From the NCBI RefSeq assembly GCF_009931435.1, contig NZ_CP043414.1: a stretch of 64,000 bases of DNA; one strand, written 5' to 3'. This DNA is from Escherichia coli (lineage in GTDB: Bacteria > Pseudomonadota > Gammaproteobacteria > Enterobacterales > Enterobacteriaceae). The notes beneath the pieces were generated by a model. It was not told the DNA's origin. It was given only the letters and a program-made list of their open reading frames with translations, and did no database searches. Each line of letters starts with the position of its first letter. Position 1 is the stretch's first letter. Positions 16,622 through 39,160 of this stretch are shown one piece after another. Both the position numbers and the translations under genes were made by a program.

Positions 16622-18016
16622 ATGCCATTTAAAAAAATCTCCCGACGCACCTTCCTGACGGCAAGCTCGGCGCTTGCCTTCCTCCATACCCCTTTCGCCC
16701 GCGCGCTTCCCGCCCGACAAAGCGTTAACATTAACGACTACACCCCTCACGACTGGATCGCCTCATTTAAACAAGCCTTCAGCGAAGGGCAAACGGTCGT
16801 CGTGCCTGCTGGATTCGTTTGTGACAATATCAACACCGGCATCTTCATTCCTCCTGGCAAAACGTTACACATCCTTGGAAGCCTGCGCGGCAACGGCAGA
16901 GGGCGATTTGTCTTACAGGACAGCAGCCAGGTGACAGGGGAGGAGGGTGGCAGTATGCATAACATCACCCTGGATGTGCGTGGCTCTGACTGCACCATCA
17001 AAGGGCTGACGATGAGCGGCTTTGGTCCGGTAACGCAGATTTATATCGGCGGCAAAAACAAACGAGTAATGCGTAACCTCTCCATCGATAACCTGACCGT
17101 TAGCCACGCTAATTACGCCATCTTACGCCAGGGATTTCATAACCAGATTATCGGTGCCAACATCACCAACTGTAAATTTAGTGATTTACAGGGCGACGCC
17201 ATTGAATGGAACGTGGCGATTAACGACCGTGATATTTTGATATCTGACCATGTCATCGAGCGCATCAACTGTACCAACGGCAAAATCAACTGGGGTATCG
17301 GCATAGGCCTTGCGGGAAGTACCTACGATAATAACTACCCGGAAGACCAGGCAGTGAAAAACTTTGTCGTGGCGAATATCACGGGATCGGATTGTCGGCA
17401 GTTGATCCATGTTGAAAATGGTAAACATTTTGTTATTCGTAATATCAAAGCCCGCAATATCACGCCGGATTTCAGCAAGAAAGCAGGCATTGATAACGCG
17501 ACAGTTGCTATTTACGGTTGTGACAATTTCGTGATTGATAATATTGAAATGATTAATAGCGCTGGGATGTTAATCGGCTATGGGGTAATTAAAGGCAAAT
17601 ATCTCTCAATACCGCAAAATTTCCGAGTGAATAATATTCAAATGGATAACACCCATCTTGCTTATAAATTGCGCGGTATCCAAATCTCTGCCGGGAATGC
17701 TGTCTCCTTTGTGGCGCTGACTAACATTGAGATGAAGCGTGCGTCGCTGGAGTTACACAACAAACCGCAACATCTTTTTATGCGAAATATCAAGGTGATG
17801 CAGGAATCCTCAGTTGGACCCGCATTGAGCATGAACTTCGACATGCGCAAAGACGTTCGCGGCGTCTTTATGGCGAAAAAAGAAACACTGCTGTCACTTG
17901 CAAATGTTCATGCGGTGAATGAAAAAGGGCAAAGCTCCGTCGATATCGACAGAGTTAATCACCACATTGTTAATGTGGAAAAGATTAACTTTAGATTGCC
18001 AGAACGGAGGGAGTAG
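16622..18016 (+). CDS. wcaM: colanic acid biosynthesis protein WcaM (secreted, predicted beta-helix)
   Basis: 464-aa ORF; Tat-like signal ([14 protein letters not shown]); last gene of the wca operon. Confidence 0.85.
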
Positions 18017-18173
18017 ATTTGCGACCATTCATAAACTTACTGGATATAATGTTCTAAAAGATTATAATCCTCACACTAACTGTTAAAGCTGGGGCTGGGC
18101 AGCATTGACTACTCAGGGAAGGTACTCATCTTTATCTTGTGTTTCTTACGTAACAACCAGACTAAAGTGATTT

Positions 18174-19169
18174 ATGAACGATAACGTTTTGCTCATAGGA
18201 GCTTCCGGATTCGTAGGAACCCGACTACTTGAAACGGCAATTGCTGACTTTAATATCAAGAACCTGGACAAACAGCAGAGCCACTTTTATCCAGAAATCA
18301 CACAGATTGGCGATGTTCGTGATCAACAGGCACTCGACCAGGCGTTAGCCGGTTTTGACACTGTTGTACTACTGGCAGCGGAACACCGCGATGACGTCAG
18401 CCCTACTTCTCTCTATTATGATGTCAACGTTCAGGGTACCCGCAATGTGCTGGCGGCCATGGAAAAAAATGGCGTTAAAAATATCATCTTTACCAGTTCC
18501 GTTGCTGTTTATGGTTTGAACAAACACAACCCTGACGAAAACCATCCACACGATCCTTTCAACCACTACGGCAAAAGTAAGTGGCAGGCAGAGGAAGTGC
18601 TGCGTGAATGGTATAACAAAGCACCAACAGAACGTTCATTAACTATCATCCGTCCTACCGTTATCTTCGGTGAACGCAACCGCGGTAACGTCTATAACTT
18701 GCTGAAACAGATCGCTGGCGGCAAGTTTATGATGGTGGGCGCAGGGACTAACTATAAGTCCATGGCTTATGTTGGAAACATTGTTGAGTTTATCAAGTAC
18801 AAACTGAAGAATGTTGCCGCAGGTTATGAGGTTTATAACTACGTTGATAAGCCAGACCTGAACATGAACCAGTTGGTTGCTGAAGTTGAACAAAGCCTGA
18901 ACAAAAAGATCCCTTCTATGCACTTGCCTTACCCACTAGGAATGCTGGGTGGATATTGCTTTGATATCCTGAGCAAAATTACGGGCAAAAAATACGCTGT
19001 CAGCTCAGTGCGCGTGAAAAAATTCTGCGCAACAACACAGTTTGACGCAACGAAAGTGCATTCTTCAGGTTTTGTGGCACCGTATACGCTGTCGCAAGGT
19101 CTGGATCGAACACTGCAGTATGAATTCGTTCATGCCAAAAAAGACGACATAACGTTTGTTTCTGAGTAA
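18174..19169 (+). CDS. gne: NAD-dependent sugar epimerase, Gne/Gnu-like (UDP-GlcNAc/GalNAc or GlcNAc-PP-Und 4-epimerase family)
   Basis: 331-aa ORF; Rossmann motif LLIGASGFVGTRL; located between wcaM and galF, where Gne/Gnu (Z3206-type) genes occur in some E. coli serogroups. Confidence 0.7.
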   Translation: MNDNVLLIGASGFVGTRLLETAIADFNIKNLDKQQSHFYPEITQIGDVRDQQALDQALAGFDTVVLLAAEHRDDVSPTSLYYDVNVQGTRNVLAAMEKNGVKNIIFTSSVAVYGLNKHNPDENHPHDPFNHYGKSKWQAEEVLREWYNKAPTERSLTIIRPTVIFGERNRGNVYNLLKQIAGGKFMMVGAGTNYKSMAYVGNIVEFIKYKLKNVAAGYEVYNYVDKPDLNMNQLVAEVEQSLNKKIPSMHLPYPLGMLGGYCFDILSKITGKKYAVSSVRVKKFCATTQFDATKVHSSGFVAPYTLSQGLDRTLQYEFVHAKKDDITFVSE

Positions 19170-19411
19170 TGCAGACGAGTCAGAGAAATAAGGACCAGGT
19201 TGGACTACGATTATTCGGAAAGAGGTACTGATTAAATTATCAGTATGCGGAATTCCGAGTAATCCGAGTAACCCAGATGCTGATGGTGTGTAGTGTTATT
19301 CTAAGGTTTAAGCAAAGTTATGCGGAACTAAGCTTTGGTATATAGCCATAACGTTTGGCTAACCTATGGCAATAATTTACGCACTATCAGCCACTTAGAG
19401 GTAGGAAAAGA

Positions 19412-20305
19412 ATGACGAATTTAAAAGCAGTTATACCGGTAGCAGGTCTTGGGATGCATATGTTGCCTGCCACTAAGGCGATTCCCAAAGAGATGCTACC
19501 GATCGTCGACAAGCCAATGATTCAGTACATTGTTGACGAGATTGTGGCTGCAGGGATCAAAGAAATCCTCCTGGTAACTCACGCGTCCAAGAACGCAGTC
19601 GAAAACCACTTCGACACCTCTTATGAATTAGAATCTCTCCTTGAACAGCGCGTGAAGCGTCAACTGCTGGCGGAAGTACAGTCTATCTGTCCGCCGGGCG
19701 TGACCATTATGAACGTGCGTCAGGGCGAACCTTTAGGTTTAGGCCACTCCATTTTGTGTGCACGACCCGCCATTGGTGACAACCCATTTGTCGTGGTATT
19801 GCCGGACGTTGTGATCGACGACGCCAGTGCCGACCCGCTGCGCTACAACCTTGCTGCCATGATTGCACGTTTCAACGAAACGGGCCGCAGCCAGGTGCTG
19901 GCAAAACGTATGCCGGGTGACCTCTCTGAATACTCCGTCATTCAGACTAAAGAGCCGCTGGATCGTGAAGGTAAAGTCAGCCGTATTGTTGAATTCATAG
20001 AAAAGCCGGATCAGCCGCAGACGCTGGACTCAGACATCATGGCCGTTGGTCGATATGTGCTTTCTGCCGATATTTGGCCGGAACTTGAACGCACTCAGCC
20101 TGGTGCATGGGGGCGTATTCAGCTGACTGATGCCATTGCCGAACTGGCGAAAAAACAGTCCGTTGATGCCATGCTGATGACTGGTGACAGCTATGACTGC
20201 GGTAAAAAAATGGGTTATATGCAGGCGTTTGTGAAGTATGGACTGCGCAACCTCAAAGAAGGGGCGAAGTTCCGCAAAGGCATTGAGAAACTGTTAAGCG
20301 AATAA
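19412..20305 (+). CDS. galF: UTP-glucose-1-phosphate uridylyltransferase paralogue GalF
   Basis: 297-aa ORF; N-terminus [30 protein letters not shown] typical of GalF/GalU. Confidence 0.9.
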
Positions 20306-20565
20306 TGAAAATCTGACCGAATGTGACGGTTGGCAAGGAAACTATAACAGCAGTGAAGATTCGTGGCGAAAGTAATTTGTTGCGAATATTCCTGCCGTTA
20401 TTTTGTATAAACAATCAGAATAACAAATAGTTAGCAATAGGCTTTTCGTCAAAGTTTTCCTGGATTTTCCTTGTTTCCAGAACGGATTGGTAAGACAATT
20501 AGCGTTTGAGTTTCGAGGGAGATGCAGCAATGTCTCTCAGTAACAGTACGCAATATCAATGAGTT

Positions 20566-20604
20566 CAGTGCACTGGTAGCTGTTAAGCCAGGGGCGGTAG
20601 CGTG
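20566..20604 (+). promoter_or_regulatory. 39-bp JUMPstart element containing the ops site (RfaH-dependent antitermination signal)
   Basis: cagtgcactggtagctgttaagccaggggcggtagcgtg; ops core ggcggtagcgtg at 20593-20604. Confidence 0.8.
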
Positions 20605-20614
20605 GATTGATGGA

Positions 20615-21436
20615 ATGAAAAATAAGTGCCCACGAATTGCAGTAATAATGTCGGTTTATATTAATGATAAATTTAATGAGTTTAAAGAGGCTTTTGACAG
20701 TATTATTAATCAAACATACTCTAACTTTGTTTTCTTTATTTATGCCGATGGCAAGATAAATCCAGATATTGAAAGTTTTTTGCAAAATTATAATTCGCAA
20801 CATGTGATTTTCATTAGAAGTGAAAAAAATAAGGGATTAGCTTATGCTTTGAATAAATTAATATCAGTGGCGCTAGTTAATAATGAATTTGATTTTATTG
20901 CCAGAATGGATGCTGATGATATAAGTTTAGAAGATAGATTTCAACGACAAATAGATTTTTTTATGGCTAACCCTGAGTTAGATGTTGTTGGTGGGTTGTG
21001 TCAAGAGTTTGGTGGTGAGTCAGCAAGAGAAAAATGCAAGATCTATTTTACAGATGAAGCCATTAAAAACAATGCCTTTAAAAAATGTCCTTTCGTTCAT
21101 CCAACCGTGATGTTTAAATCGTCTGTATTTAATAACGGGATGCGATACCCTGAAAATCAGCCACTGACAGAAGATATGTGCTTATGGCTCGAGTTAATAT
21201 CCGCGAATAAAAAGTTTGCAAATATTGACTCCGTTCTTCTAAAGTACAGAATTAATGAGCAGACGCTAAAAAGAAGAAGAGGTTTGAATAAGGCTGTAAC
21301 CGAATTATCCACAAGATTGTATTACGCCAAGAAACTTAAAATGCTTAGCGTACGGAATTTGTTATATATATTAATCCATTTTGGTGTCAGAGTCCTTCCT
21401 TCAAATATATTTAAACTTGTACATAAGTTAAATTAA
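20615..21436 (+). CDS. O-antigen glycosyltransferase, GT2 family
   Basis: ORF 20522..21436, with the likely start (MKNKCPRIAVIMSVYIND) at 20615 just after ops; DADD motif (ARMDADDISLEDRF); AT-rich. Confidence 0.7.
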   Translation: MKNKCPRIAVIMSVYINDKFNEFKEAFDSIINQTYSNFVFFIYADGKINPDIESFLQNYNSQHVIFIRSEKNKGLAYALNKLISVALVNNEFDFIARMDADDISLEDRFQRQIDFFMANPELDVVGGLCQEFGGESAREKCKIYFTDEAIKNNAFKKCPFVHPTVMFKSSVFNNGMRYPENQPLTEDMCLWLELISANKKFANIDSVLLKYRINEQTLKRRRGLNKAVTELSTRLYYAKKLKMLSVRNLLYILIHFGVRVLPSNIFKLVHKLN

Positions 21437-21437
21437 A

Positions 21438-23204
21438 ATGAATAAAACTGTTTATACATATGATGTATGGGATACTATTTTAAAACGTCATTGTTTACCA
21501 TCATATACGTTAGAGGTTTCGTTGTACTGGCTACTTTTGTATCTTGGAAAACCTGAGAAACATAAGGATGTGTATAAAAAAGTAAAAGCACTGGAGAGTG
21601 ATTTTTTTAATCGAAAAGAAGAATATTTTATTGAAGAGCTTATTGTTGGGATATTAATTGAAAATAATTTAATGAATGGATTTTGCAATAACTCTGTGAC
21701 TGCTGCTTGGGAACAAATATATTATTTCGTAGAGAGAAATTGTACATATAAAAATAAAGAGGTTATAGAGTTAATTGGGAGTGACTATGGGGACAAATTA
21801 TTTATTTCTGATTTTTATACTGACTCCAGTTTCATAAAGAAATTGCTACACCACCACCAAGTATCGGTTTTAGATGGTGTGACGTCAGCTGAGTATGGCG
21901 TCAGTAAGCATATGGGTTCATTGTATGAAAAAATAGAACTATTGAAGCAAAGGAAATGGATCCATACTGGAGATAATGAATTAGCTGATATAAAAATGGC
22001 AAAGCGTGCAGGTGCCCAAGTTAGACTTATAAAATCCAAAAAGAAGAAAATAAATAAGTTAAAAATAAAAAATGACTATGAGCGGTTAGCATTTATTATT
22101 TTGTCCTTTAGCCTGTTTATATTAAAAACTTCCAGAAAGAAAAAGTGCAATAAGATCTACTTTTTTACAAGGGAGGGGGTTTTTTTCAAAAAAAACTTTG
22201 ATCTTCTACTAAACCAAATACCTAACATATTCCCATCTATAACTACGGAAATATTGCCAATCAGTCGAGTAGCCAGCTTAGCATTGAAGTTTAATGAGTC
22301 TGATGAATTTTTAGGATTTAATGATGCATTAACCCAGTATGGCTATGGAGTGTCTACGTTTCTTAGTTTCTTTCATCTTGATGATTGTTACTCCGAGCTC
22401 ACAACAAAGTATCATGATGTAAATGATTTATTATCTCACAGAAATGATCCTTTGGTAAAACAACTAATAAAAAGTATAGAGGATAAAAAAAAACGAACAG
22501 AAAATTTTCTTACATCCATTGAGTTCGATTCTGAGCCAAGTATCATCGTGGATATTGGTTGGCGGGGTAGCATCCAAGATAATTTAATGTCGCGGAAAAA
22601 TAATTATATTCAACATGGATGTTATCTCGGATTGTTTGATTTTTACCCAGGCCAGTCAGGTCAGAATAAATCATCTGTAATTTTTGATAACAACAGATTT
22701 AGACAAAAATGGACCATGAAAGGTGTAGCTTTTATGGAGACGGTTTTCAATGCTTTGGACGGAAGTGTTGTCGATTATGTAAACAATAAACCGAAAAGAA
22801 AAGAAAATTACGCTGAGATAGAAAATTCAAAACATTTAATAGTTATGCAAGATGCTATCATTGAGGAATTTATGAATCTATCTATTATGTTAAAAGAGGG
22901 AAAGTTAAATATCAATGATATTGAAAGATTAGCTATTGAAAGTTACAAAAAAATAGTAACTAACCCATCTAAAGAAATAGCTGATTTTTATGTTGGCAGT
23001 ATCCAAAATGAAAGCTTCGGTTTGAATGATTTTATCGACAAAGAATTTAACATTAGCGCAGTAGATGTTTTCCGAAGTTTTTTTTCTAAAAGTAAAAGAA
23101 ATGAAATAAGAATAAAATTGCATAGAAATGGATGGCGTGAGTCGATACTTAAATCCTCTAAAGTATCGCTGAGCGCAAAATTATGTTCACTTTTAATTAG
23201 ATAA
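21438..23204 (+). CDS. hypothetical 588-aa O-antigen cluster protein; HAD-like N-terminal region plus uncharacterised C-terminal domain
   Basis: Long AT-rich ORF; N-terminus YDVWDTIL and IHTGDNELADIKMAKRAGAQ loosely resemble HAD motifs I and III/IV; hydrophobic segment near residue 215; no family recognised for residues 230-588. Confidence 0.55.
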   Translation: MNKTVYTYDVWDTILKRHCLPSYTLEVSLYWLLLYLGKPEKHKDVYKKVKALESDFFNRKEEYFIEELIVGILIENNLMNGFCNNSVTAAWEQIYYFVERNCTYKNKEVIELIGSDYGDKLFISDFYTDSSFIKKLLHHHQVSVLDGVTSAEYGVSKHMGSLYEKIELLKQRKWIHTGDNELADIKMAKRAGAQVRLIKSKKKKINKLKIKNDYERLAFIILSFSLFILKTSRKKKCNKIYFFTREGVFFKKNFDLLLNQIPNIFPSITTEILPISRVASLALKFNESDEFLGFNDALTQYGYGVSTFLSFFHLDDCYSELTTKYHDVNDLLSHRNDPLVKQLIKSIEDKKKRTENFLTSIEFDSEPSIIVDIGWRGSIQDNLMSRKNNYIQHGCYLGLFDFYPGQSGQNKSSVIFDNNRFRQKWTMKGVAFMETVFNALDGSVVDYVNNKPKRKENYAEIENSKHLIVMQDAIIEEFMNLSIMLKEGKLNINDIERLAIESYKKIVTNPSKEIADFYVGSIQNESFGLNDFIDKEFNISAVDVFRSFFSKSKRNEIRIKLHRNGWRESILKSSKVSLSAKLCSLLIR

Positions 23205-23207
23205 AAT

Positions 23208-24080
23208 ATGAATATTTCAGTAATAATTTGTTGCTATAACTCAGAAAATAGAATCGTAAACACCCTTTTTCATCTTTCACAATGTGTATCTCTATCCAAG
23301 GGGTTAATTGACGAGATTATTCTTGTTGACAATAACTCATCTGATGAAACTGTTAAAACAGCTGAGGATTTTTGGCGTAATACGGGGGAGGAGCAAATCT
23401 TTAAAATTGTTTTTGAATCGATTCCGGGCCTTGTTCATGCTAGACGGCGAGGGCTGGACGAGTCCAAAAATGAGATTGTTGTTTTTTGTGATGATGATAA
23501 TTGGCTGGTACCATCTTATTTTACAAAACTAGAGAAATATTTTGAAAACAAACAAGTAGGCGCTGTCGGGGGACGCGGTATTCCTATTGCTAATACCGTT
23601 ATTCCTGAGTGGTTTTTTGAGAATCTGGATGCATATGCATGTTCTGCACAAACTTCTAACATGTTGTATGGTGCTAGCTTGGCTATTCGGTCTAGTATCT
23701 TAAAAAAATTTTATACGGATGCTTTATCAGTAAAGCTAAAGGGTAGAACAAAAGACAGTCTGGATTCTGGGGAAGATAACTTATTGTGTAATTTTGTCAA
23801 AAAACAAGGATACACTCTGATACCTGACAATACACCATTTTGCCATTTCATGGAAAGCAAGCGATTGGATGTCGATTATCTATATAAACTGGCTGAATCA
23901 TTTGGAAAAGCAACGGCATCAATGAAAAACAATTCCTTCACCACCGATTATGTATATTTGACAGCAAAAATGTTATTAGCTATATCTAGGATCTTCTCTA
24001 AAAAAAATAAAAAGATATATTTAAAACGTGAGATTTCCTTTCTCAGAGGTTATTTGAGGTTTAGAAAGGAATCGAAGTAA
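23208..24080 (+). CDS. O-antigen glycosyltransferase, GT2 family
   Basis: 290-aa ORF; classic GT2 N-terminus MNISVIICCYNSENRI ... ILVDNNSSDET ... FCDDDN. Confidence 0.75.
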   Translation: MNISVIICCYNSENRIVNTLFHLSQCVSLSKGLIDEIILVDNNSSDETVKTAEDFWRNTGEEQIFKIVFESIPGLVHARRRGLDESKNEIVVFCDDDNWLVPSYFTKLEKYFENKQVGAVGGRGIPIANTVIPEWFFENLDAYACSAQTSNMLYGASLAIRSSILKKFYTDALSVKLKGRTKDSLDSGEDNLLCNFVKKQGYTLIPDNTPFCHFMESKRLDVDYLYKLAESFGKATASMKNNSFTTDYVYLTAKMLLAISRIFSKKNKKIYLKREISFLRGYLRFRKESK

Positions 24081-25258
24081 TGAGAGGGGGAATGCTTGTA
24101 ATTGCGTGGTATTCTATTTTTCTGTTGATTTCAGCTACGGGCATGACCGGTCTAAATAAGCTGAGTACTGAAGCTATTCTGTGCTATATTGCATTTTTAT
24201 TCTGTTTTTTCTTTGGCATGATGTTAGGTGGTGTTTCGCTCCCAAACGGAATGAAAATGTTGCAACAGGAGCAAAAGATAAAGAAAAGGCATGCTTCTGC
24301 CATAGTTCTAATTTATTGCTTTTTTATTTTTTATTCTTTAATTGCTCTTTTAAATATATATTATTTCAATAAGGTTGATCTATCATCTTATAGACAAGCA
24401 TTTTTTGATGGTTCAAGAGATAATGTTAAATACTTCTATGGCGTGTTTGGCTTTTACTTCTATTATTTACTTAGCCTGTTAGTATTCGCCTTAGTTCCTT
24501 ATACTATTATAACGAACAGCAAAAAGACTATTTCATTATGTTTCTTTGCCTTGCTGCTATACGATATTATTTTCCTTTCAAGAACTGGTGTTTATTACTT
24601 TATATTATCTTATATAGTATCGAGTATTCTTCTCAAGAAAGGAATCAAGAAAATTATAATTGTAGGGATGGTTGCCTTATTATTCTCATTGATAATGAGT
24701 TACACAAGGGATATGAAGAGTGACATCATTGGTACATTATTTAGCTCAATTATAAATTATCATATAGCTCCGTTTGTCTTGTTTGATGAAAATATAATAT
24801 CAAATCATTTGATTAAATATAATGGGGCTGGCTTGGCATCGTTGGGGATATATAATATCATTTTTTATCCCATTGATTCGTCTATCATGTCATCAATAAA
24901 CGATTTTAGAGCACAGTTGAATGAATTCTATGATTTGGGAGTAAATCGTTATTTGCCATATAATGCCTATTATACTTCTTTGGGTGGGGTATATATAGAT
25001 AGCGGCCTGATTGGTAGCATGATGGTTAGTTTTATGACTGGTTTTATTATTGTCGGAATCGAGAAGAGTGCTTTTAAATCAACTAAGTTCTTAGTCTCTT
25101 CTGTGTTTTTTACTACATTATGTATGGAATCTATATTTTCCCCAATAACACTAAATATTTTTGCCTTTACAATAATTGTCTACTTAGTTGTTTTGATGGT
25201 CCTTAAATATGAAAATAGCGATGATAATACCATCTTTAAAAAATACCGCGCCAAATAA
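24080..25258 (+). CDS. wzy: putative O-antigen polymerase
   Basis: 392-aa highly hydrophobic, Phe/Ile/Tyr-rich multi-TM ORF inside the O-antigen cluster; assignment by elimination (wzx is the other polytopic protein). Confidence 0.55.
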   Translation: MRGGMLVIAWYSIFLLISATGMTGLNKLSTEAILCYIAFLFCFFFGMMLGGVSLPNGMKMLQQEQKIKKRHASAIVLIYCFFIFYSLIALLNIYYFNKVDLSSYRQAFFDGSRDNVKYFYGVFGFYFYYLLSLLVFALVPYTIITNSKKTISLCFFALLLYDIIFLSRTGVYYFILSYIVSSILLKKGIKKIIIVGMVALLFSLIMSYTRDMKSDIIGTLFSSIINYHIAPFVLFDENIISNHLIKYNGAGLASLGIYNIIFYPIDSSIMSSINDFRAQLNEFYDLGVNRYLPYNAYYTSLGGVYIDSGLIGSMMVSFMTGFIIVGIEKSAFKSTKFLVSSVFFTTLCMESIFSPITLNIFAFTIIVYLVVLMVLKYENSDDNTIFKKYRAK

Positions 25259-26234
25259 TATAGCCCTTTCAATATGTGAAGGGGCAAGGAAGCATGGTGT
25301 CAATATAGATATTTATTATCTTGATGAAATTGTAGAGTTGGATATAGACGAGTCAGAACTGAATATAAATAGGCTAAATGATAGAACCATTTTAAACAGT
25401 TATGATATTGTTCACTCTCATGGCTTAAGACCCGATGTTATTAATTGTAAGACCAGCAAAAATGTCATTAATGTAAGTACGCTTCATAGTTTTATTTTAG
25501 ATGATCTTAAGAATAAATATGGAATAAAAGGATATCTGATCGCTTTTGCTTGGCTTAAATTATTAAAGCGATTTGATTCATGTATTGCAATTAGTGAGGC
25601 GACTAAACGGTTTTATGTTAAACATGGTCTTAAATGCCACCATATATATAATGGAATCGACTTTCCTGACATCGAATTATATCAAGATAACTCAAGGCTA
25701 AATAACGGCAAAATAAATATAGTATCGATCGCGCATCTGGAAAAAATAAAAGGCTTAGAGCAACTCCTATATCTAGCCGCGGAGCGAGAAGAGTTCCATG
25801 TTCATATAATTGGTGAAGGAACTTACCGTGGGAAATTAACAAATATTATTGATAAGTTTGATTTATCTCAGCGTGTAACTTTGCATGGATATATATCAAA
25901 TGCGAGTTCTATGTTGGGGAAATTTGATGTTTATGTGCAACCATCTAAAAGTGAGGGGTTTGGCATTGCAGTCATTGAAGCTCTTGTAAATAAAATCCCA
26001 ACAGTTTGCTCAGACATTGAAGTGTTCAGAGAGTTATTTGGCTCAGGAGAAGTTGAATTTTTCAAGTTAGACGATATTAATTCACTTTACGATGCAATTT
26101 CAAGTGCATTAACCAAGACAGATATGTCTCGAGATGCAAGTGCCACAGCGATAAGCCAAAAATTTTCTTCAGAAGTGATGTCATTGAACTATTTAAGTTG
26201 GTATAAAAAATTATATGAAGAAAGAAATTTATAA
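25209..26234 (+). CDS. O-antigen glycosyltransferase, GT4 family
   Basis: 341-aa ORF; GT4 E-x7-E region (SKSEGFGIAVIEALVNKIPTVCSDIEVFRELF). Confidence 0.75.
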   Translation: MKIAMIIPSLKNTAPNNIALSICEGARKHGVNIDIYYLDEIVELDIDESELNINRLNDRTILNSYDIVHSHGLRPDVINCKTSKNVINVSTLHSFILDDLKNKYGIKGYLIAFAWLKLLKRFDSCIAISEATKRFYVKHGLKCHHIYNGIDFPDIELYQDNSRLNNGKINIVSIAHLEKIKGLEQLLYLAAEREEFHVHIIGEGTYRGKLTNIIDKFDLSQRVTLHGYISNASSMLGKFDVYVQPSKSEGFGIAVIEALVNKIPTVCSDIEVFRELFGSGEVEFFKLDDINSLYDAISSALTKTDMSRDASATAISQKFSSEVMSLNYLSWYKKLYEERNL

Positions 26235-27393
26235 ATATGGCACAATAATATTATGCTATGGAATTAACTTTATACTACCTATTCTTTTCTTTAAAGAAAT
26301 AAGTTTAATATTATCTCCAATAGTATTATCATCATTTTTCTTTGTTTTGGCATTGCTAATGTATTGTCAATTCATTGTTGAATACGGGTTGCAAATATCA
26401 TTATTAAGAAAGTTAAATGAAAATAAGAGTGATTTAAGTCGGCTTTTATCTACTATTCTTGGACTAAAAGTAATACTATTCGTCCTATGCGCAGTATTCA
26501 TTTATTGTATTTTGCTATATAATAATGAAGTTATATTTTTTATACTTGTTTTCATTCTGCTAGGAAACGTATTCTCATGCCAGTTCCTCTATCAAGTAGT
26601 TGATCAGCTCCATTTTTTTTATGTATTAAATTCGCTTGTTAAGCTAATTTTCATACCCCTCATTTTTATCAATGATAATTATATCTATCTGATGATATGT
26701 TATAGTTGTTTCAATATCCTACCTAACTTAGCTGCACTTGCTTATTTTTTATATAAGAATAAAGTTAAGGTTGTAAAAGTTCCTGCTTGTGAAATTTATA
26801 ATTTATCTAAGGAATGTTTTAGCTATTTTATCTCGAATATTTCGATAACATTATACACTAATTTTTATCAGATCTTATTAGGCATTATATCGCCCGCTTA
26901 TCTGGCCGCGTATGCATTAAGTGACAAAATTATTAGGGGGATCGTGTCAGGGAATTATGTGTTTATACAGATAGTACAAGTACAATACTTAAATGATGAA
27001 TCAAAGTTCATCAATGGTACATGGAAAACGATTGTTTCATTATTATTACTGGGGGGGATGGAGTTTTTATTTATTTTCTTTGGAGCGGATTTTTTCTCTC
27101 GTTATTTATTCCCTACAATATCTTTACTGCCAATTTTTCTAAAACTAATGTCATTGCTAATTGTTGTTATCTTGTTGAGTAACTTTTTTGCAATGGTTTA
27201 TCTTCCGTGTTCAGGCAATACTTTATTCCTCTCACGTGTTCTGATTTTTGTTTCTATTGTGTCCGTAGTAGTTGCCCCGATACTAATATGGCTCTATGCA
27301 GGTTATGGTGCAGTCATTTCCGCTATATTTTCAGAGTTATTAGTTCTGATTTTATGCTATGGTTTATATTTGAAATTAAAACACAAACTCTAA
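26215..27393 (+). CDS. wzx: putative O-antigen flippase
   Basis: 392-aa polytopic membrane ORF, about 12 predicted TM segments, AT-rich. Confidence 0.65.
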   Translation: MKKEIYKYGTIILCYGINFILPILFFKEISLILSPIVLSSFFFVLALLMYCQFIVEYGLQISLLRKLNENKSDLSRLLSTILGLKVILFVLCAVFIYCILLYNNEVIFFILVFILLGNVFSCQFLYQVVDQLHFFYVLNSLVKLIFIPLIFINDNYIYLMICYSCFNILPNLAALAYFLYKNKVKVVKVPACEIYNLSKECFSYFISNISITLYTNFYQILLGIISPAYLAAYALSDKIIRGIVSGNYVFIQIVQVQYLNDESKFINGTWKTIVSLLLLGGMEFLFIFFGADFFSRYLFPTISLLPIFLKLMSLLIVVILLSNFFAMVYLPCSGNTLFLSRVLIFVSIVSVVVAPILIWLYAGYGAVISAIFSELLVLILCYGLYLKLKHKL

Positions 27394-27415: not shown

Positions 27416-27856
27416 ATGAATTTATTGATTGTTTTTTGCTTTTATATTTCGGTTCTGCGTAGTAATAAAATAAGTGTATTTAAATTAATCACTATCACAA
27501 CTGTCTTGATTGTATATGTATTCTGGCTAATAGCCGACAGTTTTACTGGCGTTGGGATAAATGATTCAGTTTATTTCCATATGTTAATGCCGCATGAGGG
27601 GGCATCGGTTGAAAATTTAACATATTATGGATTTCTGATTGTAAGCCTTGTTATTTCAATTTTCTTGATTGCTTATGTTTCTTGGAAAAAGAAGCATAAT
27701 AGAGGATTAAGTAAAAATTACTCTTTTTACGTACTCTTCGCTATTGTATTAGTTACTCCATTTATGCGTAATTTCCTGGGGTCAATTAACAATTTAATTT
27801 CCGAACAGTTTTCTACTGAAGATATAAGTAAAGAGTATGTAATCAATAGTAGGTGA
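27416..27856 (+). pseudogene. 3'-truncated membrane-protein gene, last gene of the O-antigen cluster, interrupted by IS1
   Basis: 146-codon ORF with N-terminal TM helices; its stop codon TGA (27854-27856) lies inside the IS1 left terminal repeat. Confidence 0.6.
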
Positions 27857-27906
27857 TGCTGCCAACTTACTGATTTAGTGTATGATGGTGTTTTTGAGGT
27901 GCTCCA

Positions 27907-28182
27907 GTGGCTTCTGTTTCTATCAGCTGTCCCTCCTGTTCAGCTACTGACGGGGTGGTGCGTAACGGCAAAAGCACCGCCGGACATCAGCGCTATCTCT
28001 GCTCTCACTGCCGTAAAACATGGCAACTGCAGTTCACTTACACCGCTTCTCAACCCGGTACGCACCAGAAAATCATTGATATGGCCATGAATGGCGTTGG
28101 ATGCCGGGCAACCGCCCGCATTATGGGCGTTGGCCTCAACACGATTTTCCGCCATTTAAAAAACTCAGGCCGCAGTCGGTAA
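27907..28182 (+). CDS. insA: IS1 InsA
   Basis: 91-aa [26 protein letters not shown]..., zinc-finger/HTH InsA. Confidence 0.9.
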
Positions 28183-28604
28183 CCTCGCGCATACAGCCGG
28201 GCAGTGACGTCATCGTCTGCGCGGAAATGGACGAACAGTGGGGCTATGTCGGGGCTAAATCGCGCCAGCGCTGGCTGTTTTACGCGTATGACAGGCTCCG
28301 GAAGACGGTTGTTGCGCACGTATTCGGTGAACGCACTATGGCGACGCTGGGGCGTCTTATGAGCCTGCTGTCACCCTTTGACGTGGTGATATGGATGACG
28401 GATGGCTGGCCGCTGTATGAATCCCGCCTGAAGGGAAAGCTGCACGTAATCAGCAAGCGATATACGCAGCGAATTGAGCGGCATAACCTGAATCTGAGGC
28501 AGCACCTGGCACGGCTGGGACGGAAGTCGCTGTCGTTCTCAAAATCGGTGGAGCTGCATGACAAAGTCATCGGGCATTATCTGAACATAAAACACTATCA
28601 ATAA
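28101..28604 (+). CDS. insB: IS1 InsB (expressed as InsAB' by -1 frameshift)
   Basis: 167-aa ORF overlapping insA in the -1 frame, ending ...HYLNIKHYQ. Confidence 0.9.
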
Positions 28605-28990
28605 GTTGGAGTCATTACCGGTTACGAGTAGTGGCATCTGGATTTGATGTGTGTAACATTAATGAGTCGTTAATATTAGCTAGAGTTGGTGATAATATGT
28701 TGGCTAGGCGAAAAGGGCTGAGGTATATAAAAAGTGAATTCCAACTTTATCGGCTAAAAGTTAAACTTGGTTTGCAGTCACATATATCTGGATTCTGCAT
28801 TTTGTTAGTAAGAAGCATTCCGCGATTACTCCCTCTAAAGGTCTTAAAAATTATTTACCAATATATTCGGAAGTAATTATATAATAATTCTGAAGATTGC
28901 ACTCTTATTTTTTCTTAGTTGTATCTTTGTATGTTAACATTACGTTTAAACCGAACCGCTAAGACGGTAATTTCGTGACAGGAGTAAACA

Positions 28991-30397
28991 ATGTCAAAGC
29001 AACAGATCGGCGTAGTCGGTATGGCAGTGATGGGGCGCAACCTTGCGCTCAACATCGAAAGCCGTGGTTATACCGTCTCTATTTTCAACCGTTCCCGTGA
29101 AAAGACGGAAGAAGTGATTGCCGAAAATCCAGGCAAGAAACTGGTTCCTTACTATACGGTGAAAGAGTTTGTTGAATCTCTGGAAACGCCTCGTCGCATC
29201 CTGTTAATGGTGAAAGCAGGTGCTGGCACGGATGCTGCTATTGATTCCATCAAGCCGTACCTCGATAAAGGTGACATCATCATTGATGGTGGTAATACAT
29301 TCTTCCAGGACACCATTCGCCGTAACCGTGAGCTTTCTGCCGAAGGCTTTAACTTCATCGGTACCGGTGTTTCCGGTGGTGAAGAGGGCGCGCTGAAAGG
29401 GCCTTCCATCATGCCTGGTGGGCAGAAAGAAGCCTATGAACTGGTTGCGCCGATCCTGACCAAAATCGCAGCCGTTGCTGAAGATGGCGAACCGTGCGTT
29501 ACCTATATTGGTACCGATGGCGCAGGTCACTATGTGAAGATGGTTCACAACGGTATTGAATATGGCGATATGCAGCTGATTGCTGAAGCCTATTCTCTGC
29601 TTAAAGGTGGCCTGAACCTCACTAACGAAGAACTGGCGCAGACCTTTACCGAGTGGAATAACGGTGAACTGAGTAGCTACCTGATCGACATCACCAAAGA
29701 CATCTTCACCAAAAAAGATGAAGACGGTAACTACCTGGTTGATGTGATTCTGGATGAAGCAGCAAACAAAGGTACCGGTAAATGGACCAGCCAGAGCGCG
29801 CTGGATCTCGGCGAACCGCTGTCGCTGATTACCGAGTCTGTGTTTGCACGTTATATCTCTTCTCTGAAAGAGCAGCGTGTTGCCGCATCTAAAGTTCTCT
29901 CTGGCCCGCAAGCGCAGCCAGCTGGCGACAAAGGTGAGTTCATCGAAAAAGTTCGTCGTGCTCTGTATCTGGGCAAAATCGTTTCTTACGCTCAGGGCTT
30001 CTCTCAGCTGCGTGCTGCGTCTGAAGAGTACAACTGGGATCTGAACTACGGCGAAATCGCGAAAATTTTCCGTGCTGGCTGCATCATCCGTGCGCAGTTC
30101 CTGCAGAAAATCACCGATGCTTATGCCGAAAATCCGCAGATCGCTAACCTGCTGCTGGCTCCGTACTTCAAGCAAATTGCCGATGACTACCAGCAGGCGC
30201 TGCGTGATGTCGTTGCTTATGCAGTACAGAACGGTATCCCGGTTCCGACCTTCGCCGCTGCGGTTGCCTATTACGATAGCTACCGTGCCGCTGTTCTGCC
30301 TGCGAACCTGATCCAGGCACAGCGTGACTATTTCGGTGCACATACTTATAAGCGCATTGATAAAGAAGGTGTGTTCCATACTGAATGGCTGGATTAA
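28991..30397 (+). CDS. gnd: 6-phosphogluconate dehydrogenase, decarboxylating
   Basis: 468-aa [30 protein letters not shown]...; recognised as Gnd. Confidence 0.97.
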
Positions 30398-30423
30398 TCT
30401 GATTTAACCAACAATAAAATTGA

Positions 30424-30455
30424 GGCCCGGCGTATATTGCACCGGGCTTTTTTTT
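30424..30455 (+). terminator. rho-independent terminator downstream of gnd
   Basis: Hairpin gcccggcg-tatattg-caccgggc followed by an 8-T run. Confidence 0.6.
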
Positions 30456-30485
30456 GCCAATTATCTTATAGACTAAATTTCACTG

Positions 30486-30502
30486 CTTAATATTAACTTA
30501 AT
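30486..30502 (+). promoter_or_regulatory. candidate PmrA (BasR) box upstream of ugd
   Basis: cttaat-attaa-cttaat, matching the YTTAAK-N5-YTTAAK direct repeat, about 145 bp upstream of the ugd start. Confidence 0.5.
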
Positions 30503-30636
30503 AAATATCAGCTATTCTTATAAAGAAAATCTGAATTGTTTTTCGTTGCGTTGACCATCTGACAACGTAGCGTTAAAACTTTTAGCTCTAATCAGGATGC
30601 TAAAAACATCATGATTCACAGTTAAGTTAATTCTGA

Positions 30637-31812
<1,176 letters not shown>

Positions 31813-31955
31813 CATCCTGTTATCAGGGCGATTTTCGCCCTGATTCTCTCATGTTCCCTTTGTAATAATTCATTGTTTTTATCATTTATCCTATAGCATT
31901 CATGGCGATTATCGCTAAACTATGGCGACTTAAAATTATTTCGTCCGTTAGGGTA

Positions 31956-32936
31956 ATGATGAGAGTAGAAAATAATAATGTTTCTGGGCAAAACCATGAC
32001 CCGGAACAGATTGATTTGATTGATTTACTGGTGCAGTTGTGGCGTGGCAAGATGACAATTATCATCTCTGTCATTGTTGCTATTGCCCTGGCTATAGGGT
32101 ATCTGGCCGTTGCCAAAGAAAAGTGGACTTCCACAGCTATCGTTACTCAACCTGATGTGGGACAAATCGCTGGTTATAACAATGCCATAAATGTGATTTA
32201 TGGTTCGGCAGCGCCGAAAGTGTCTGAGATCCAGTCGATGTTAATTGGTCGTTTCAGCACGACATTTTCTGCATTAGCAGAAACGCTGGATAATCAGGAA
32301 GAACCTGAAAAACTGACCATTGAGCCTACCGTTAAAAATCAGTCATTACCTTTAGCGGTTTCTTATGTGGGTGAAACACCTGAAGGTGCGCAGAAACAGC
32401 TGGCGCAGTATATCCAGCAAGTTGACGACCAGGTAAATGAAGAACTGGAACAAGACCTGAAAGACAACATCGCGCTGCGTATGAAAAACTTGCAGGATTC
32501 TCTGAAGACGCAGGAAGTGGTCGCTCAAGAACAGAAAGATCTGCGTATCCGTCAGATTCAGGAAGCGTTGCAGTATGCGAATCAGGCGCAGGTGACAAAG
32601 CCGCAGATTCAACAGACACAGGACGTAACCCAGGATACTATGTTCCTTTTGGGGAGCGAAGCGCTGGAGTCGATGATTAAGCACGAAGCGACCCGTCCGT
32701 TGGTGTTCTCATCAAACTACTATCAGACTCGTCAAAACCTGCTGGATATCGACAATCTTGACGTTGATAAACTTGATATTCATGCTTACCGCTATGTAAT
32801 GAAACCGACGTTACCTATTCGTCGCGATAGCCCGAAGAAAGCAATTACCTTGATTCTGGCTGTGCTGCTGGGCGGTATGGTGGGCGCGGGGATTGTGTTG
32901 GGGCGTAACGCACTGCGTAATTACAACGCGAAGTAA
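31956..32936 (+). CDS. wzzB: O-antigen chain-length determinant (polysaccharide co-polymerase)
   Basis: ORF 31902..32936; likely start at the MMRVENNN methionines (31956/31959); N- and C-terminal TM segments flanking a coiled-coil-rich periplasmic domain. Confidence 0.9.
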   Translation: MMRVENNNVSGQNHDPEQIDLIDLLVQLWRGKMTIIISVIVAIALAIGYLAVAKEKWTSTAIVTQPDVGQIAGYNNAINVIYGSAAPKVSEIQSMLIGRFSTTFSALAETLDNQEEPEKLTIEPTVKNQSLPLAVSYVGETPEGAQKQLAQYIQQVDDQVNEELEQDLKDNIALRMKNLQDSLKTQEVVAQEQKDLRIRQIQEALQYANQAQVTKPQIQQTQDVTQDTMFLLGSEALESMIKHEATRPLVFSSNYYQTRQNLLDIDNLDVDKLDIHAYRYVMKPTLPIRRDSPKKAITLILAVLLGGMVGAGIVLGRNALRNYNAK

Positions 32937-32954
32937 TCTTTTTGGTTTTAAAGA

Positions 32955-32990
32955 AAACGGGCAGGGTGGTGACACCTTGCCCGTTTTTTT
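32955..32990 (+). terminator. rho-independent terminator after wzz, followed by a REP-like hairpin shared with the convergent hisI 3' end
   Basis: cgggcagggtg-gtga-caccttgcccg followed by T7; then gccggatgcgacaacaacatcgcatccgc (32991-33020). Confidence 0.6.
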
Positions 32991-33031
32991 GCCGGATGCG
33001 ACAACAACATCGCATCCGCTTACCCCGCCAC

Positions 33032-33636
33032 TCACTGATGCCGTTTACGCAGGTTCTCAATTACCGTCGTTAAATCCAGATCCTGATCCTGCAACAACAC
33101 CAGCAGGTGATACATCAAGTCAGATGCCTCGTTGGTCAGCTCAAAGCGGTCATGTACCGTTGCTGCCAGTGCGGTTTCCACGCCTTCTTCGCCCACTTTC
33201 TGCGCAATGCGTTTGGTGCCGCTGGCATACAGTTTGGCGGTGTAGGAGGTTTCCGGGTCGGCAGATTTACGTTCGGCGAGCAGTTGTTCCAGTTGATGCA
33301 GGAACAGCCACTGGTGAGCGGTGTCGCCGAAGCAGCTGCTGGTGCCTTTGTGGCAGGTTGGCCCGATGGGATTCGCCAGCACCAGTAATGTGTCGTTGTC
33401 GCAGTCCGGCGCAATGCTCACCACATTGAGAAAATTGCCCGAGGTTTCGCCTTTGGTCCACAGTCGCTGTTTAGTGCGCGAGAAGAAGGTGACTTTACCG
33501 CTTTCGATGGTTTTGTCCAGAGCTTCCGGGTTCATGTAGCCCAGCATTAACACTTCGCCAGATACCGCGTGTTGCACAATCACCGGCATCAGTCCGTCGG
33601 TTTTTTCCCAGTCCAGTTCGCGACGTTGTTGTTCTG

Positions 33637-33643
<7 letters not shown>
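33032..33643 (-). CDS. hisI: bifunctional phosphoribosyl-AMP cyclohydrolase / phosphoribosyl-ATP pyrophosphatase
   Basis: 203-aa ORF; last gene of the his operon. Confidence 0.95.

Positions 33644-39160
<5,517 letters not shown>

Follow-up and report, generated by a model that had tools for sequence, protein, structure and literature searches.

The O-antigen locus in a 64,000-nucleotide stretch of Escherichia coli DNA (assembly GCF_009931435.1, contig NZ_CP043414.1; hereafter the window) is very probably a standard O153 cluster whose right end is an IS1-sealed replacement scar in what was formerly an O37-type locus. Judged from sequence comparison, the O153 genes appear to replace the O37-type locus from just past its promoter to codon 178 of its last glycosyltransferase gene, and the two joints that bound them can be placed on the left within a short block common to both parents and on the right at an IS1 element lying between the remnants of two different genes.

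The O153 assembly genes, assigned from open reading frames and family matches, occupy positions 20615–27393 on the plus strand and comprise, all in that orientation, a GT2 gene (to 21436), a gene for a 588-aa protein (21438–23204), a GT-A gene (23208–24080), wzy (24080–25258), a GT4 gene (25209–26234), and wzx (26215–27393). Both wzx and wzy are intact, as is each of the three glycosyltransferase genes, and no sugar-nucleotide genes were found within the window's O153 cluster. A JUMPstart/ops element on the plus strand (20566–20604, cagtgcactggtagctgttaagccaggggcggtagcgt, with the ops core at 20593) lies upstream and appears to have arrived with the imported cluster. Published O153 wzx primers match exactly at 26479–26499 (plus strand) and 27200–27219 (minus strand) and yield the published 741-bp product, which therefore identifies the cluster as O153. 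The literature holds two different “O153” reference sequences, and the window corresponds to the one that those primers target; the O153-specific PCR on this wzx was validated on 2/2 O153 strains. An O19 identity, prompted by strain SMS-3-5, which carries this cluster and was published as O19:H34, was considered and rejected: the O19 polysaccharide contains several L-Rha residues, whereas the cluster has no rml genes and the primers give O153.

To the left of IS1, positions 27416–27851 (plus strand) hold the first 144 codons and one further base of a gene for an OpgB/LtaS-like, sulfatase-family transferase (identified by its match to PRK12363), of which the membrane anchor is all that is left. 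The corresponding 146-aa reading frame (27416–27856) ends …AGT AGG TGA. Its last host base is 27851, the first position of the AGG codon, and the TGA (27854–27856) lies inside the left end of IS1, as a preliminary description of this DNA had read it. Residues 9–142 of the product match the NCBIfam model PRK12363 “phosphoglycerol transferase I” (E = 1.5e-11), and the N-terminal membrane region also matches PRK03776; the NCBIfam score is far under the curated cut-off (43.7 bits vs 572).

The 90%-identity protein cluster of the 146-aa frame includes a full-length protein of 738 aa (P0037), which carries a Pfam Sulfatase domain at residues 153–433. Loci with the intact gene are referred to below as donor-type. 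In loci L003 and L005–L012 the intact 738-aa gene crosses the junction point uninterrupted: the residues EYVINS, with which the host-derived part of the window's copy ends, are followed directly by NKLNGVDNIVFIYAESLE, and the protein P0037 and the DNA of strain TBE6 continue across the same point from KEYVINS into NKLNGVDNIVFIYAESLERTF. These copies bear out the preliminary statement that IS1 truncates the last gene of the cluster, and no IS1-free intact homologue ending at the same position was found. The window's copy has lost 594 codons, including the whole catalytic domain. A multi-span membrane region followed by a catalytic domain, the arrangement of OpgB/LtaS proteins, is present in the intact homologue and absent from the window's reading frame.

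The intact homologue resembles OpgB (MdoB)/LtaS-type transferases in its N-terminal membrane region and Sulfatase domain but differs from them in an extra tail of ∼300 aa without an assigned domain. It would accordingly be described, from its sequence, as a distant relative whose gene belongs to an O-antigen cluster, and not as an OpgB orthologue. The lost enzyme would probably add a phosphoglycerol- or phosphoethanolamine-type substituent in the periplasm, and the functional loss would be confined to this accessory transferase. PGAP leaves the 146-aa frame unannotated in several O153 genomes; public databases already contain these proteins and even list the fragment under the name “Phosphoglycerol transferase I”.

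The IS1 element itself (27852–28619, plus strand, 768 bp by direct reading) is complete, has the same orientation as the operon, and has no target-site duplication. Its left inverted repeat begins at 27852 with ggtgatgctgccaacttactgat, and its right one ends at 28619 with atcaataagttggagtcattacc. The length of ∼768 bp and the imperfect terminal inverted repeats of ∼23 bp (GGTGATGCTGCCAACTTACTGAT … ATCAATAAGTTGGAGTCATTACC) are those of an IS1 element. The insA reading frame spans 27907–28182 and the insB-frame one 28101–28604, and the motif tttaaaaaac at ∼28155–28164 contains the A6C of the IS1 programmed −1 frameshift. RefSeq labels the SMS-3-5 copy at this site “IS1A family transposase, programmed frameshift”, and that copy differs from the window's at 4/768 positions. 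At a 4-nt patch (28113–28155) the window differs from all six other O153 strains in which IS1 was compared. As a clue to the pathway this patch was discarded: it also occurs in the donor-type IS1 and consists of common IS1 polymorphisms that do not discriminate.

The 9-mers flanking the element, tcaatagta (27843–27851) and ggttacgag (28620–28628), agree at one of nine positions, in line with the preliminary report of an IS1 without target duplication. Direct comparison of both flanks revealed no duplication of 8–9 bp at the ends of the window's IS1, nor did any direct repeat emerge when the junctions were read again. A simple IS1 insertion is excluded because there is no direct repeat, and a target duplication is not expected here because the two flanks derive from different genes. 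Both junction 40-mers are also present in seven other independently sequenced genomes, and therefore the joint is no assembly artefact.

The right flank of IS1 comes from a different cluster. The gap between IS1 and gnd (28620–28990) measures 371 bp and holds an 81-aa reading frame with a GTG start (28631–28876), which agrees with the ∼370 bp and the 81-codon frame described before. Positions 28620–28876 (plus strand) are a relic, at 100% identity, of the WbbD-like GT2 gene that closes an O37-type cluster, consisting of its last 84 codons and stop: they equal L001:6001–6257 (gene L001:5469–6257) at 257/257 nt, and their translation is that of the last 84 codons of a 262-aa GT2 protein, with the break falling at …MEDYNLW/LRVVASGFDV…. 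The product of the 81-codon frame shares a 90% protein cluster with the 262-aa glycosyltransferase. Over the whole gap, the window is identical at 371/371 nt to E. coli WP8-S17-ESBL-05, where this segment is a glycosyltransferase 3′ end and the intergenic sequence after it. RefSeq assigns wzx and wzy of that strain to the “O37 family”, and published O37 wzx primers match its locus at the published 353-bp spacing.

By these matches, the 81-codon frame is thus part of a gene that belongs to a different O-antigen cluster. The preliminary description had suggested comparing 28631–28876 with the ends of known O-antigen genes; that comparison did find a glycosyltransferase 3′ end, but one from another gene and another cluster than the truncated reading frame on the far side of IS1. 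The parent glycosyltransferase is labelled “MULTISPECIES” and is found on 201 contigs, and the earlier resident cluster could be that of another serogroup with the same glycosyltransferase gene.

Both outer flanks are also of the O37-strain type. Relative to WP8-S17-ESBL-05, the one O37 strain that served as reference for the flanks, the window has 2 differences across 18011–20504 (gnu, galF, and the promoter region) and 14 across 28620–31000, none of them before 29013. The left flank consists of gnu (18174–19169) and galF (19412–20305), both on the plus strand and named after identical RefSeq proteins, and the right flank of the 114-bp O37-type intergenic region and gnd (together 28877–30397, plus strand, with gnd starting at 28991). 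The colanic acid genes further left are ∼3% different from the O37 strain. The left flank of the O153 strain TW11681 has 13 differences from that of the window.

A three-way alignment shows the window tracking the O37 strain as far as 20505 and matching the donor type (L007) from 20487 on, which places the left joint in a 19-nt block, TTGGTAAGACAATTAGCGT (20487–20505, plus strand), common to O37-type and donor-type loci. BLAST boundaries had suggested an imported segment starting exactly at the donor IS1 site, 20465; this was rejected, as the alignment puts the joint 23–41 bp further right. The right joint is IS1 itself, set between codons 144/145 of the opgB-like gene and codons 178/179 of the last O37 glycosyltransferase gene. 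In other respects, the O37 cluster and the O153 genes are not related.

All loci in which the 738-aa gene is intact have a gene set of the same O153 type, 99.9–100% identical to the window, and the set with its last gene intact was found only in foreign enterobacterial surroundings, with galF 79%, gnd 87%, and ugd 73% identical to those of the window. The intact opgB-like gene is the last before gnd and is followed by ∼70 bp and ISAeme16; in none of the loci with the intact gene does an O37-type glycosyltransferase gene come after it. The 3′ part of the gene is present in 2/5,426 complete E. coli genomes (TBE6 and TST3) and has no match among 72,556 plasmids. Both TBE6 and TST3 have an ISAeme16-flanked module carrying wcaM′-galF-cluster-gnd-ugd, and in TBE6, the strain whose surroundings were read, the module sits within a P2-like prophage. 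The same module occurs in assemblies labelled Enterobacter cloacae, with the transferase gene cut at codon 646 by IS26. The names on the module's GalF, Gnd, and Ugd proteins reveal no donor organism, and its Ugd is alone in its 90% cluster.

Four donor-type loci (L005 and L008–L010) contain a simple IS1 insertion with an 8-bp duplication, GATTTTTC, at the equivalent of window position 20464/20465. This upstream IS1 has the same orientation as that of the window and lies 23 bp left of the left joint, a closeness that is weak evidence, both features being confined to an intergenic region of ∼200 bp. The O153 state in the window is derived, because a fragment cannot yield an intact gene. We infer the direction of transfer solely from this intact versus truncated state, and every known intact copy lies in an IS-ridden module.

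The arrangement is widespread. Among 5,426 complete E. coli genomes, 75 contain the left junction and 78 the right one; their sources are humans, dogs, pigs, cattle, poultry, and water. Three complete genomes have 5′ sequence of the O37 glycosyltransferase gene; in these the gene is annotated as intact, and in one it was read as uninterrupted. We read seven other O153 loci in full, in which cluster and relic are essentially the same while ugd, wzz, and his vary from strain to strain, and compared five other strains with the window segment by segment. In 5/5 compared O153 strains, identity to the window is 99.97% or higher across cluster, IS1, and relic, except for the 4-nt IS1 patch, whereas ugd, wzz, and hisIE-F are ∼2–15% different in 4/5; in TW11681 these genes are identical or nearly so to those of the window. 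Because the cluster and relic are near-identical while the neighbouring genes differ, the composite appears old and appears to have been inherited or transferred as one unit. The arrangement is the standard form of the O153 locus and no fresh mutation of this strain.

Classical IS1 activity includes adjacent deletion and the formation of cointegrates and composites; in an adjacent deletion one end stays fixed, the other flank changes, and no target duplication is made. Strain MRSN346647 shows the same pattern at the O153 joint, with IS1 abutting window position 27463, a further loss of 388 bp from the left flank, and the right junction unchanged. In one short public contig (P0004), the junction would lie 26 bp to the left of its usual place. 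IS1 has therefore later made further leftward deletions in some strains. In MRSN346647 the constant junction and shortened flank reflect a secondary event, not the primary one: unlike a classical IS1 deletion, that primary event brought DNA of two origins together in the window and needs a prior integration step. Two genomes have the right junction but lack the left flank; neither was among three further O153 loci.

The route to the scar that we favour would begin at the donor-type locus. The upstream IS1 of such a locus would transpose intramolecularly into the opgB-like gene, yielding an IS1-plus-cluster circle or an IS1-flanked composite and making the junction between position 27851 and the left inverted repeat. 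The circle or composite would then either transpose into the O37 glycosyltransferase gene or recombine there with an IS1 already resident, and this entry would make the junction between the right inverted repeat and ggttacgag. The O37 genes and the left IS1 would subsequently be lost through recombination across ∼40 bp of promoter-proximal homology. In its full form, in which O153 arose by the capture of an IS1-bounded circle or composite with a foreign gene set into an O37 locus and the window preserves a datable fossil of a serogroup switch, we advance this reading tentatively, at somewhat less than even chances. On this reading, the gene set with an intact transferase gene is travelling as IS-bounded cargo to this day, in modules such as those of TBE6 and TST3. 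If true, whole O-antigen loci would move between genera as transposon-like units, beyond homologous replacement at galF and gnd.

The main rival, less likely than not, is a history of two independent IS1 insertions, one in the incoming opgB-like gene and one in the resident O37 glycosyltransferase gene, followed by IS1-by-IS1 recombination. With one crossover in the 768-bp IS1 on the right and another in the promoter-proximal block on the left, the end result would be the same. Hybrid flanks with one copy each of two different 9-mers are exactly what such recombination should leave. IS1 is moreover common, a genome having a median of 10 places that match it, and the 4-nt patch at 28113–28155 indicates that the window's IS1 exchanges sequence with other copies. 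However, this history needs two independent insertions in the same orientation, must treat as chance that the donor-type IS1 lies 23 bp from the left joint, and presupposes two parental insertions, of which neither was found. The predicted products of an IS1-interrupted O37 glycosyltransferase were absent, by exact look-up, from a collection of 15 billion proteins, and a duplication-flanked IS1 in the opgB-like gene was seen in no genome. A split O37 glycosyltransferase (P0075 and P0076) was examined as a candidate parental insertion and rejected, its break at codons 80–86 being an ordinary contig end.

The least likely route, and in our judgement an improbable one, is that of the preliminary description, in which a single ancestral cluster held both genes and an IS1 adjacent deletion removed what lay between them. 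The absence of a target duplication fits it, as do the deletions that IS1 has made at this same site in MRSN346647 and the junction further left in contig P0004. Yet the intact opgB-like gene is always terminal, with no such glycosyltransferase after it; the relic, the intergenic region, and both outer flanks are of O37 type; and the O37 and O153 gene sets have nothing else in common. That description had attributed the loss of the rest of the gene to IS1-linked deletion or recombination. The 594 codons are indeed missing, but what is seen at IS1 is the joining of two clusters and not a deletion inside one.

A recent, strain-specific IS1 event that abolished the O antigen and left a rough strain is very improbable: IS insertions do abolish the O antigen in some laboratory and clinical strains, but here identical junctions recur in 75–78 complete genomes of varied sources, every assembly gene is intact, and the PCR on this wzx detected both O153 strains on which it was validated. 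The suggestion that the truncation might abolish O-antigen expression is consequently not well founded, as the assembly genes are intact, the lost gene is accessory, and the arrangement is standard in O153; a rough phenotype would not be a reasonable inference from this locus.

The scar can be set beside known cases of IS elements in O-antigen loci. In E. coli K-12, wbbL::IS5 is a simple insertion in an essential glycosyltransferase gene that makes the strain rough. The K-12 wbbL defect is mentioned in PMC11231755. Both there and in the window an O-antigen cluster has one of its genes broken by an IS element, but in the window the gene that was hit is accessory and has lost its remainder, and the arrangement has become fixed in a serogroup that can be typed.

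A closer likeness is found in Gp14–Gp16 of Iguchi et al. 2015 (PMC4379981), in which an IS element lies at the right end of the cluster and adjacent genes, glycosyltransferase genes among them, have been replaced or deleted; the authors' conclusion is that gene replacement in O-antigen loci is driven by IS elements. The window likewise has its IS element at the right end of the cluster. Unlike in the Gp14–Gp16 cases, its relic reveals which type of cluster was there before, and on the incoming side the truncated gene encodes a sulfatase-family transferase and no glycosyltransferase. In the text consulted, the article makes no mention of O153, O37, or this junction, and no published description of IS1 in the O153 cluster was found in the literature searched. 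The O153 IS1 joint is a new, well-resolved example of a known process.

For annotation, the 146-aa “phosphoglycerol transferase I” and the 81-aa reading frame should be regarded as fragments, neither functional genes nor signs of a defective strain. For the evolution of the locus, they form a legible record of a serogroup replacement in which the former cluster type can still be read from a 257-bp relic, and the locus supports the published view that IS elements, besides recombination at galF and gnd, reshape O-antigen loci. The intact 738-aa gene suggests that strains carrying it may make a chemically modified O153-like antigen, which would affect both serological and in silico typing.

When the insertion sequence IS1 of the window (27852-28619) is compared with the copies that six other O153 strains carry at this site, the only differences are at 28113, 28149, 28152 and 28155, four clustered positions at which the window copy matches the IS1 found upstream of the cluster in donor-type loci, where O153-type genes and an intact 738-aa transferase gene lie in foreign enterobacterial surroundings. 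This patch probably reflects gene conversion from another IS1 copy. Across the complete E. coli genomes of the ecoli_genomes collection, the right IS1 junction was present in 78 and the left junction in 75. MRSN346647 is one of the three genomes that have the right junction without the left, and the remaining two presumably carry larger leftward deletions that reach into the cluster.

The source of the window is probably closely related to the lineage of the enterotoxigenic strain TW11681. Across window positions 28991-34413, gnd, ugd and hisIE-hisF are identical in the two and wzz differs at one position. There are 13 differing positions in the left flank. At the O37 locus of strain WP8-S17-ESBL-05, fragments of ISAs1 transposase and of a group II intron reverse transcriptase lie between galF and galE (L016:5913-8920), so the O37-type locus is likewise IS-ridden.

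An entire foreign O-antigen locus is flanked by copies of ISAeme16 in L003, L005, L006 and L021 (loci of E. coli TBE6 and TST3) and in L017-L020 (loci of assemblies labelled Enterobacter cloacae). The module contains wcaM', galF, IS1, the O153-type gene set including the uninterrupted gene for the 738-aa transferase, ISAeme16, gnd, ugd and part of an epimerase gene. The TBE6 copy does not occupy the usual galF-gnd site; it interrupts the gene for the portal protein of a P2-like prophage, next to the gab operon. The same module is present in a second genus, that of the assemblies labelled Enterobacter cloacae, where the transferase gene is interrupted by IS26.

The galF-gnd locus of SMS-3-5 holds the same O153-type cluster as the window. 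The published serotype of this strain is O19:H34, and one paper names the D-galactan II genes wbbY/wbbZ, which lie elsewhere in the genome, as the source of its O19-type reactivity. Two differing reference sequences for the "O153" cluster exist in the literature (PMC4732683 and PMC4379981): one of these studies places O153 and O178 in one group, with 99.9% identity, whereas the other reports that the two show no similarity. The window carries the version of O153 targeted by the primers of PMC7403468.

Within the cluster, wzx (26215-27393) is an intact ORF of 392 codons. In SMS-3-5, C1, 2017C-4173W12 and MLI106K1, RefSeq annotates the identical sequence as two separate genes, for a "partial flippase" and a "hypothetical protein", and leaves it unsplit in TW11681. 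A genuine wzx frameshift, near the window-equivalent position 27057, shortens the product to 308 aa in strains LS45 and 702/18, both of which also have a further IS1 copy in the gnd-ugd interval. For the first glycosyltransferase gene, the mechanical ORF and the RefSeq annotation both begin at 20522 and cross the JUMPstart element (20566-20604). Family matches start only at residue 32-37 of this ORF, and an in-frame ATG at 20615 is the likelier start.

The 588-aa protein encoded at 21438-23204 matched no NCBIfam family, and its Pfam matches were faint and HAD-like only. According to the literature, ribofuranose is a component of O153, the number of glycosyltransferases in O153 is one below expectation, and ribofuranosyltransferases are PRPP-dependent, two-domain proteins in which one domain is a phosphatase domain. 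The product of 21438-23204 is a candidate ribofuranosyltransferase.
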